This document shows, in pieces, positions 45,229-47,040 of a DNA stretch of 64,000 bases. Below the pieces are notes generated by a model, which was not told the DNA's origin, did not search any database, and worked only from the letters and a program-made list of their open reading frames with translations. How positions within the stretch are numbered: position 1 is the stretch's first letter; each line of letters opens with the position of its first letter. The stretch is from Octopus vulgaris (Eukaryota): the NCBI GenBank assembly GCA_951406725.2, contig OX597826.1, positions 57,102,001-57,166,000 of the forward strand, given 5' to 3'. The position numbers and the translations under genes are program-made.

Positions 45229-45969
45229 ATGTGTGTATATTTCTTATCCAGTTGTAATTTTTTTATTTTTATTTTTATTTTTATGCTAGGATTACAATTC
45301 TCTGTTCTTTTCAGTAATTAAAATTTTCTTTGGAATTCAGTGTTGTAATTGCATATAAATGTATGTTAATTCCATTCCATTCTCTTCTTTTGCTTTAAAT
45401 GATAATTTTTTTCCCAGTTGGTCTTCAGGATTTCAGCAAACCACACTAACACACACAAACAAATGCAAGCACGCAATAATAAAAATAACAAAAAATTAAA
45501 AAACAAAAACAAAACAAAAAGCATTTAGAATTTAGAGAGAGAGAGAGAGAGAACAATGAAATCACAAACAGAATAAAACATCAATAGAAATAGTTGGTTT
45601 TGCTGACATCATGAACAACACAAGAGCAGCAAAAATAAAACAAAATGGAAAGCAAAAAAAAAAATAAAAGCATTTTCAAAAAACTTTAAATTTCTTCCAT
45701 CCTTTCACATCTTGTCTGCTATTTTCTGTTCTGATGTGATATGAATAATGATTAGTTTTATTCAAATACATGCAAAATCCAGCCAGAATGTAATTTTTAG
45801 AAAACATTATATAGAAGAAATAGAAATTGTAAAGAAAAATTTTGTTTACCTTATTTTTCAGGGAGTTTTACTTATTCTTTTTTTCCCCACCCTTCTTACA
45901 ATAGACTGGTTTTGGTCAATATTAAAGAAAAGTTGAAATGAAAGAAATTTGTAGATGGAATTTCTGGAT

Positions 45970-46010
45970 ACTTACCTGAAAATATAAAATAGAAATAAAT
46001 TAATTAATTT
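45970..46010 (-). promoter_or_regulatory. Candidate recursive splice site (3'ss fused to 5'ss): polypyrimidine-TTTTCAG|GTAAGT
   Basis: Minus strand taaattaattaatttatttctattttatattttCAG|GTAAGTatcc; junction 45976/45975; no AG on the minus strand from 46160 to 45979. Confidence 0.6.
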
Positions 46011-47040
46011 ACGAAACAAATAAATTTTTTGTGTGACAAAAATACAGTAAAAAGAACAAGAGAATTGAAATAAAATAAATTGGAAATTTCAAAGTATTCA
46101 ATAATTTAAAGATTTTGCAACCAGCAAACCATTTGTTGTTTTCAAGGTCAGTGAGTATTACTAAGTAACAACACAACTCCTCTCTCACCAACACTACCAT
46201 CAAGAGTTTTGTCCCATCACCAGCTTCATCTTAAAAAGTTAAAGTTTGTAGTGGTTGGCCAGTGATGAGAATTACTCGATGTTTTACAAGACAACTTACG
46301 GCACAAATGATTGATTCTTGCAAAATTAAACAGGCATCTGTTAAGTCTAATAGTTGAGCTCAAAACTATTCTTAAAAAGAGAAAGAGAAATAGAGAGAAA
46401 GAGAGAGAGAGAAGAAAGAGAAAAGAAAGAGAAAATTCACAATAAATATCCCAGTTTAGCAAGTAATTACATTTCTTCGTTTAATTATCCAAAAACCTAT
46501 AAGTCTTGTACCAACCCTTGCACAATCTAAATTAATTTTGTTTGCCTTGTACAAGGTAAAACATTTTATATGCTTGTTGTAGAATAACTAACTATAAGAA
46601 TATTTGGAGTTATTTGATTTTCTTCATCTTTACAGTTAATTCTTTTATATTAAACATTTCTTTTTGCTTTCTTTTCCACTAATTTTTCAGAAGTTCTTTG
46701 AAAATGAAGATGCACTGCTTGTAAATTTTCTAACAAATAAAATCTTTAAAAATAAATATAGTCTATTTACACATACATACACACACACACACACACACAC
46801 TTGCATACATAATTTCTTTTACAGATCCAACTGAAGACTACCACCTTACATTATTTAAAGAAAGGGAATCTAGTTGGTGTGATGTCAATATTATGACTAT
46901 ATATTTTATTGTGACTGGATCAATAAAAATTCGAACTAAAACAGGACTAAGATTTGAATTTAGAAACACAAAGCACCAAAGTGGTTGATGTCCTAAGTAA
47001 GTGATACCCTTAGTTTGGCTCTATCCAATTTATTTCTAAT

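Follow-up and report, generated by a model that had tools for sequence, protein, structure and literature searches.

A fused acceptor and donor in the window

The window, meaning the whole stretch of 64,000 nt analysed here, spans C13:57102001-57166000 (contig OX597826.1) of a 2.8-Gb Octopus vulgaris genome (G000); numbers without a contig prefix are window positions, and a slash within a motif marks the splice junction. On its minus strand an acceptor runs directly into a donor, TTTTCAG/GTAAGT, and the window letters confirmed the junction at 45976/45975 that a preliminary description of this DNA had reported. The candidate ratchet junction, CAG/G (45975..45978, minus strand), consists of an acceptor AG at 45977-45976 and a donor GT starting at 45975; it corresponds to C13:57147977. 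The sequence AGGTAAGT occurs in the window only at this site, both strands counted. The donor half, GTAAGTAT (45968..45975, minus strand), would pair fully with the 5' end of U1 snRNA, through position +8.

Upstream of the junction lies an AG-free zone (45978..46160, minus strand) with a pyrimidine tract of 16/20 and TT at -6/-5. The absence of AG had been described correctly, but the zone measures 183 nt (46160-45978) rather than 182 nt, the preceding AG being at 46162-46161. At least 15 longer AG-free gaps are present on the minus strand of the window, the 15 longest spanning 240-568 nt; a zone of this length is therefore common here, and the lone site is weak as proof. Branch-like TTAAT had also been described, and two overlapping copies of this word are indeed present (45999..46007, minus strand), starting 30 and 26 nt 5' of the AG. 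They form a candidate branch point within the range of -36 to -21 given for fly ratchet points in the Duff preprint (10.1101/006163).

Downstream of the junction, both donors named in the preliminary description were found, at +76 (ATT/GTAAGA) and +126 (AAG/GTAAAC; 45844..45852, minus strand), together with a third at +85 (AGG/GTGGGG) that it had overlooked and that took the top score in a rough donor matrix. The 126-nt segment between the junction and the last of these (45850..45975, minus strand) has stops in all three frames, as claimed, and is a candidate cryptic RS-exon with alternative ends at +76 and +85. The surroundings, said to be free of transposable elements over about 2.7 kb, proved to hold simple repeats alone between the nearest interspersed repeats at 44026-44226 and 47028-47555. 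A genome search, in which simple repeats were skipped, found the 461-nt site region to be single-copy. Elsewhere in the window, positions 2393-3084 carry a tandem repeat (192-nt unit, 3.6 copies, 98% matches), and an Rfam search of the window returned no matches.

One contig from a relative, organism D, spans 45826-46357; it differs there by 13 substitutions and 3 indels, none of them within 45908-46030. In it the +126 donor is intact and the +76 and +85 donors are substituted. The relative is 97% identical, hence the conservation of the site is weak evidence (P ~0.09). Three sets of RNA-like contigs, which come from two studies and may be DNA, were compared with 43800-46360: they contained no joint and did not cover 45778-46360, and two of the three largely covered 44402-45442. 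The repeat at 44026-44226 is short and of high copy number, and in these contigs it has deep coverage and several variants.

Nine sites on one strand over 1.12 Mb

The survey was widened by 1.6 Mb of flanking DNA, added in 200-kb steps, giving 1.664 Mb with the window included. Strong acceptors were defined by a fixed rule (YAG, at least 16/20 pyrimidines, 30 nt free of AG) and were scored for an immediately following GTAAGT. This rule was set on the first six sites, and the later 800 kb served as held-out DNA; when this rule, the interval scanned for downstream donors and the strict donor rule were chosen, six to nine sites were already known. As the flanks grew, three sites were found by 464 kb and six by 864 kb, then eight, then nine. 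Over the 1.664 Mb, GTAAGT followed 9 of 820 strong acceptors on the minus strand, where 0.129 was expected (P 2e-14), and none of 521 on the plus strand (0.124 expected). In the held-out DNA, 3 of 391 minus-strand acceptors qualified where 0.067 were expected (P 5e-5), and of 260 plus-strand acceptors none did. Each of 24 threshold pairs applied to the first 864 kb returned five to seven minus-strand sites and no plus-strand site.

All nine sites lie on the minus strand and read TTTYAG/GTAAGTA. Counted 5' to 3', with the best downstream donor after each, they are site 1 at C13:57801930 (L165:5930), +125; site 2 at C13:57659019 (L121:3019), +77; site 3 at C13:57565431 (L061:9431), +90; site 4 at C13:57416525 (L047:525), +72; site 5 at C13:57257077 (L011:1077), +95; site 6, which is the window site, with its donors at +76, +85 and +126; site 7 at C13:57028644 (L034:6644), +59; site 8 at C13:56765948 (L068:3948), +55; and site 9 at C13:56677067 (L149:5067), which has no donor at +40 to +150. 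The array extends over 1.12 Mb, its seven upstream sites over 773 kb, and its density is ~0.6 per 100 kb (nine sites in ~1.4 Mb).

That these sites arose by chance from the T-rich composition of the sense strand, or survive as relics of a repeat, is very improbable. Strong acceptors are 1.6 times commoner on the minus than on the plus strand, and one repeat family has a similar motif (at ~15/30 loci, described below); however, an expectation calculated per strong acceptor absorbs the strand bias and still leaves 9 sites against 0.13, and 3 against 0.07 in the held-out DNA. Spacing is also regular, the seven upstream sites being separated by six gaps of 94-159 kb (CV 0.20; P 0.0005 against uniform placement), and the window site is single-copy. 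Apart from one 27-nt off-motif match, the flanks of the nine sites are alike only in the motif, which argues that the sites are not copies of a repeat. The sole large gap in the series, 263 kb, contains a coding exon of ephrin.

The acceptor halves carry features of their own. TT at -6/-5, which lies outside the acceptor rule, is present at all nine sites and at 32% of 811 control acceptors (P 3e-5), and the AG-free zones of the nine measure 36-183 nt. A at +7 is likewise found at 9/9 sites against a background of 42% (P 4e-4). CAG/GTAAGT is an ordinary donor consensus, and each site could in principle act as a donor alone, closing a long AT-rich non-coding exon; we give this explanation very little credence in view of the pyrimidine tract, the TT and the AG-free zone at every site. 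At the six sites checked, moreover, every frame of the 150 nt upstream contains a stop, which excludes the end of a coding exon there.

A donor at +40 to +150 follows 8/9 sites (found at 55-126 nt) and 16.7% of 216 matched acceptors, and the matrix scores of downstream donors separated sites from matched acceptors at P 9e-5, the matrix being a generic one. Such donors would also be expected if the sites were ordinary short non-coding exons that are kept in the RNA, their initial GTAAGTA never being used as a donor, and upstream of the ATG there is no reading frame for such exons to break. This explanation would not account for the fact that nine out of nine such exons begin with a perfect donor. 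The junction donor outscores the downstream donor at all eight sites scored for both, and sites 8 and 9 fall between coding exons whose peptides are contiguous in Octopus ephrin proteins. Retention of the sites as exons is therefore improbable in our judgement, though less so than chance or a donor alone.

Several weaker motifs were seen in the same region. A second CAG/GTAAGT, weaker than site 7, lies 304 nt 5' of it on the same strand (C13:57028948; L034:6948). Weaker combinations of acceptor and donor, with GTGAG, GTAAAG or GTAAGC, occur on the minus strand at C13:57826372, 57748601, 57701656 and 57065538 and on the plus strand at 57708247.

The ephrin locus and possible hosts of the array

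Among exon candidates in the flanks, the best corresponded to the last part of an ephrin domain. Genome-wide, with 47/47 candidates scored, one locus exceeded the cut-off for PF00812, at C13:56.59-56.62 Mb on the minus strand. The signal-peptide exon of this gene is at 56.937 Mb, with its ATG at about 56937311, and the following intron starts at 56937164 (minus strand); the peptides of this and later exons agree, by eye, with the Octopus ephrin record P0005. Records P0007-P0009, which have other N-termini and no true first coding exon, look like gene-model errors. At the other end of the gene (L140:2300-2470), the protein finishes in a hydrophobic tail and has no cytoplasmic domain, an arrangement that would be as in GPI-anchored ephrins; databases mostly apply the label ephrin-B.

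The first coding intron of ephrin is 320,235 nt long and holds sites 8 and 9 on its sense strand, where they divide it into 171, 89 and 60 kb. Sites 1-7, the window site among them, lie 91-865 kb upstream of the exon with the ephrin ATG. The minus strand is T-rich over ~1.4 Mb, the T excess being 0.043-0.065 in the upstream megabase and 0.081 in the ephrin intron. This skew stops near 57.998 Mb; over 160 kb beyond 58.006 Mb it is -0.017, and this stretch has no strong site. Close to the point where the skew ends, an ATG stands directly 5' of a GTGAGT donor (C13:57990945; L184:4945), a candidate first exon and donor.

We lean, at slightly better than even odds, towards a distal ephrin promoter near 57.99-58.0 Mb as the start of the host transcript, which would then contain a 5'UTR intron of ~1.05 Mb removed in eight steps. 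The last of them would end at 56937855, where the ephrin leader has a strong acceptor 90.8 kb after site 7, a step size that fits the series.

The same ratchet mechanism could operate in another host. In that case the seven upstream sites would belong to a separate minus-strand unit that stops short of the ephrin promoter and is either a lncRNA or a gene whose exons went unrecognised. Just before the exon with the ephrin ATG come a region that is rich in CpG and resembles a promoter, and a plausible long 5'UTR; because ephrin has this promoter-like region, the seven upstream sites may have another host. T skew also climbs from 0.047 to 0.081 past this region, and a separate unit could include a 76-nt cassette with strong splice sites at C13:57097686-57097761. 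On the other hand, the skew stays positive all the way to ephrin, and the distance from site 7 to the leader acceptor lies inside the range of the series. Host coding exons were sought with Pfam among 87/153 ORFs of the end regions and 60 of the 142 top-ranked exon candidates of the middle megabase, an approach that would overlook short or fast-evolving exons, and only a LINE exceeded the cut-off. A separate unit keeps a substantial chance of being correct, somewhat below one half. Under the distal ephrin promoter, as under a separate unit, the window site would be the same kind of element.

Other features of the region were recorded. The 76-nt cassette (L041:5686-5761, minus strand), about 4 kb left of the window and 50 kb after the window site, has a very long pyrimidine tract and a GAGG/GTGAGT donor and is a candidate non-coding exon. 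CpG-rich blocks at C13:57.586-57.606 and 57.826-57.856 Mb, in an otherwise CpG-poor megabase, could act as internal promoters or enhancers. We gave no weight to low CpG as an indicator of a transcribed gene body, because most midpoints of other clusters in the genome are CpG-rich. Matches below the Pfam threshold (SRTM1, presenilin, rhabdovirus glycoprotein domain, DUF3678) were discounted as chance. A minus-strand LINE with long endonuclease and reverse-transcriptase ORFs lies at C13:57.216-57.219 Mb (L007).

Related sites across the genome

A tight pattern was derived from the nine sites, so that their own share of its matches (9/77) is circular. In 2.8 Gb it matched 77 times, compared with 68 times for the same pattern reversed and 29 times for one with a scrambled donor. 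With the ephrin locus left out, 68 sites remained, and these formed 8 adjacent pairs at no more than 300 kb, where 0.49 were expected, all on the same strand. A disjoint pattern, differing in the base at +7, matched 89 sites against 34 for its reversed control. Taken together, the 157 sites outside the locus included 21 adjacent pairs no more than 500 kb apart, where 4.3 were expected, and in 21/21 pairs the strand was shared; among pairs more than 1 Mb apart, the strands agreed in 59/105. A control in which the GT was destroyed had 68 sites and no pairs at 30-500 kb (0.76 expected). Its pairs within 1 Mb shared the strand in 4/4 cases, so composition accounts for part of the strand agreement.

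The signal is clustering in few loci, the array at the ephrin locus being the largest, with no genome-wide excess. The genome-wide test for enrichment on the sense strand, suggested in the preliminary description, gave same-strand clustering. The raw counts are ambiguous against their controls (77 vs 68; 89 vs 34). At other clusters, the motif strand was T-rich at 12/17 midpoints (P 0.07), and a strict downstream donor was found at 3/7 clustered sites (P 0.10; by matrix, P 0.03).

A second array on the same contig has four sites, all on the plus strand, at C13:4468665, 4648741, 4685572 and 4805401. Further clusters lie at C12:64.9, C8:22, C4:37, C6:65.9 and C16:27.8 Mb. On another contig, a plus-strand pair at C20:68157932 and 68355472 precedes by 435 kb a same-strand exon for an Ig domain (L249), whose best PDB match is Dscam. 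When I-set hosts were sought near the other clusters, with 150/559 candidates scored, this pair was the one that had a same-strand neighbour.

Looser patterns were uninformative across the genome, because one repeat family yields many of their matches. With an AG/GTAAGT pattern requiring 11 pyrimidines, ~15/30 genome matches came from one or two related repeat families (L082-L110, for example L082, L091 and L107). Going by their motif, these families may be LINE coding sequence read antisense. Insertions of repeats that carry AG/GTAAGT could seed new ratchet-like sites.

A proposed route of stepwise splicing

Judged from the genome sequence, the window site is, at a probability of roughly 0.83, a fused acceptor and donor that acts as a ratchet point of recursive splicing, whichever transcript hosts it. 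The idea that the window lies in a large, recursively spliced gene on the minus strand of a cephalopod genome, raised in the preliminary description, gains support from the eight sister sites on the same strand, the T-rich minus strand over ~1.4 Mb and the same-strand clustering elsewhere. The nine sites are probable ratchet points of the fly type, at about seven times the spacing seen in flies.

In the model that we propose, a predicted megabase transcription unit runs into ephrin, and the array would break the removal of its giant introns into steps of 60-190 kb. At the window site, the pyrimidine tract and a weak donor 76-126 nt downstream would first define a short cryptic exon, as in the fly model (Joseph 2021, PMC8605326). 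The upstream exon would be joined to the CAG of the window site, removing a predicted segment of 109,100 nt that begins at site 5 and whose last 18 kb would occupy 45976..64000 (minus strand) of the window. The regenerated donor GTAAGTAT would then beat the downstream donor and splice to site 7, 119,333 nt further on; the first 46 kb of this predicted segment would be 1..45975 (minus strand). The cryptic exon would leave with that segment and never appear in mRNA.

The broadest reading goes further, and we hold it tentatively, at a little under even odds. Here the octopus would remove megabase introns by fly-type ratcheting at vertebrate scale: an ephrin unit of ~1.4 Mb would lose its 1.05-Mb 5'UTR intron in eight steps of 90-190 kb and its 320-kb intron in three, and at least a dozen other giant genes would have the same kind of array.

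Comparison with known recursive splicing

Recursive splicing is proven and common in flies, with steps of ~18 kb, and is proven in vertebrates, where fully silent sites are rare. If the octopus array is what we propose, its steps of ~130 kb would add a third large animal lineage with recursive handling of giant introns, and step length would scale with genome size instead of being fixed by the spliceosome. An intron of eight steps would exceed in that respect any fly intron in the Duff set as the preprint presents it, and at 1.05 Mb it would be longer than the human introns supported by saw-tooth patterns (Duff, Sibley; table passage of PMC10156609), which in the same source have a median length of 547 kb and reach 875 kb. 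At the quoted transcription rate of 45 min per 100 kb (Shepard 2009, PMC2773006), a unit of ~1.4 Mb would take ~10 h to transcribe. The array also suggests that ephrin has a hidden 5' extension of 1 Mb, and the ratchet motif could help to find unannotated giant genes. Long genes are described as enriched in neural tissue in octopuses as in vertebrates (PMC7222433), and in the octopus optic lobe a gradient of ephrin is reported to run opposite to that of Eph (PMC9815951).

The closest likeness is to the ratchet points of Drosophila (Ubx, kuz, osp, fz, luna, Bx), which have the same YAG/GTAAGT, a strong pyrimidine tract and TT at -6/-5; the Duff preprint (10.1101/006163) counts TT there in 196/197 of them. 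Fly cryptic RS-exons have a weaker donor shortly downstream (Joseph 2021, PMC8605326), and fly ratchet points occur several per intron, are spaced non-randomly and favour first introns (Pai 2018, PMC6110457). At the octopus locus we found the fused motif, the tract with TT, the sense-strand excess, even segments and a weaker donor downstream; sites 8 and 9 are located in an ephrin intron, and a predicted intronic position of the window site is read from strand skew and from the absence of host coding exons among the candidates scored. The scale differs. Fly segments measure 2.6-63.6 kb with a mean of 18 kb, in introns of up to 132.7 kb with 1-6 points each (Duff preprint 10.1101/006163), or 9.1 kb on average in Pai 2018 (PMC6110457), whereas the octopus segments measure 60-171 kb (an uncertain first one 189 kb), with seven consecutive points over 773 kb. 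In flies, moreover, the sites are proven in RNA, and the octopus sites are known here from genome sequence.

With the recursive sites of vertebrates, the octopus array shares the size class of its introns and a putative RS-exon with competing donors (Sibley 2015, as cited in PMC8605326 and PMC10156609). Among mammals, PMC8605326 notes only nine fully suppressed recursive sites, and according to the same source inclusion of vertebrate RS-exons is governed by donor competition together with the exon junction complex. In vertebrate large introns the sense-strand excess is given as little or none, at a ratio of 0.9-1.5 (Shepard 2009, PMC2773006); the octopus locus, by contrast, has nine sites on one strand and none on the other.

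Inclusion of vertebrate RS-exons, for its part, also depends on the upstream exon. The octopus evidence is of the same type, sense versus antisense, as that of the Shepard 2009 survey (PMC2773006), which describes a sense excess of RP sites in large introns of bee, beetle, mosquito and sea urchin. Its 13 species include no mollusc and no other lophotrochozoan, and our literature search, which covered few subscription journals, found no report of recursive splicing in molluscs. At ~0.6 per 100 kb, the octopus density lies within the 0.5-1.0 given in that survey under a different scoring rule. The octopus array would thus present a known kind of site in what is apparently a new phylum, at an unusual scale.
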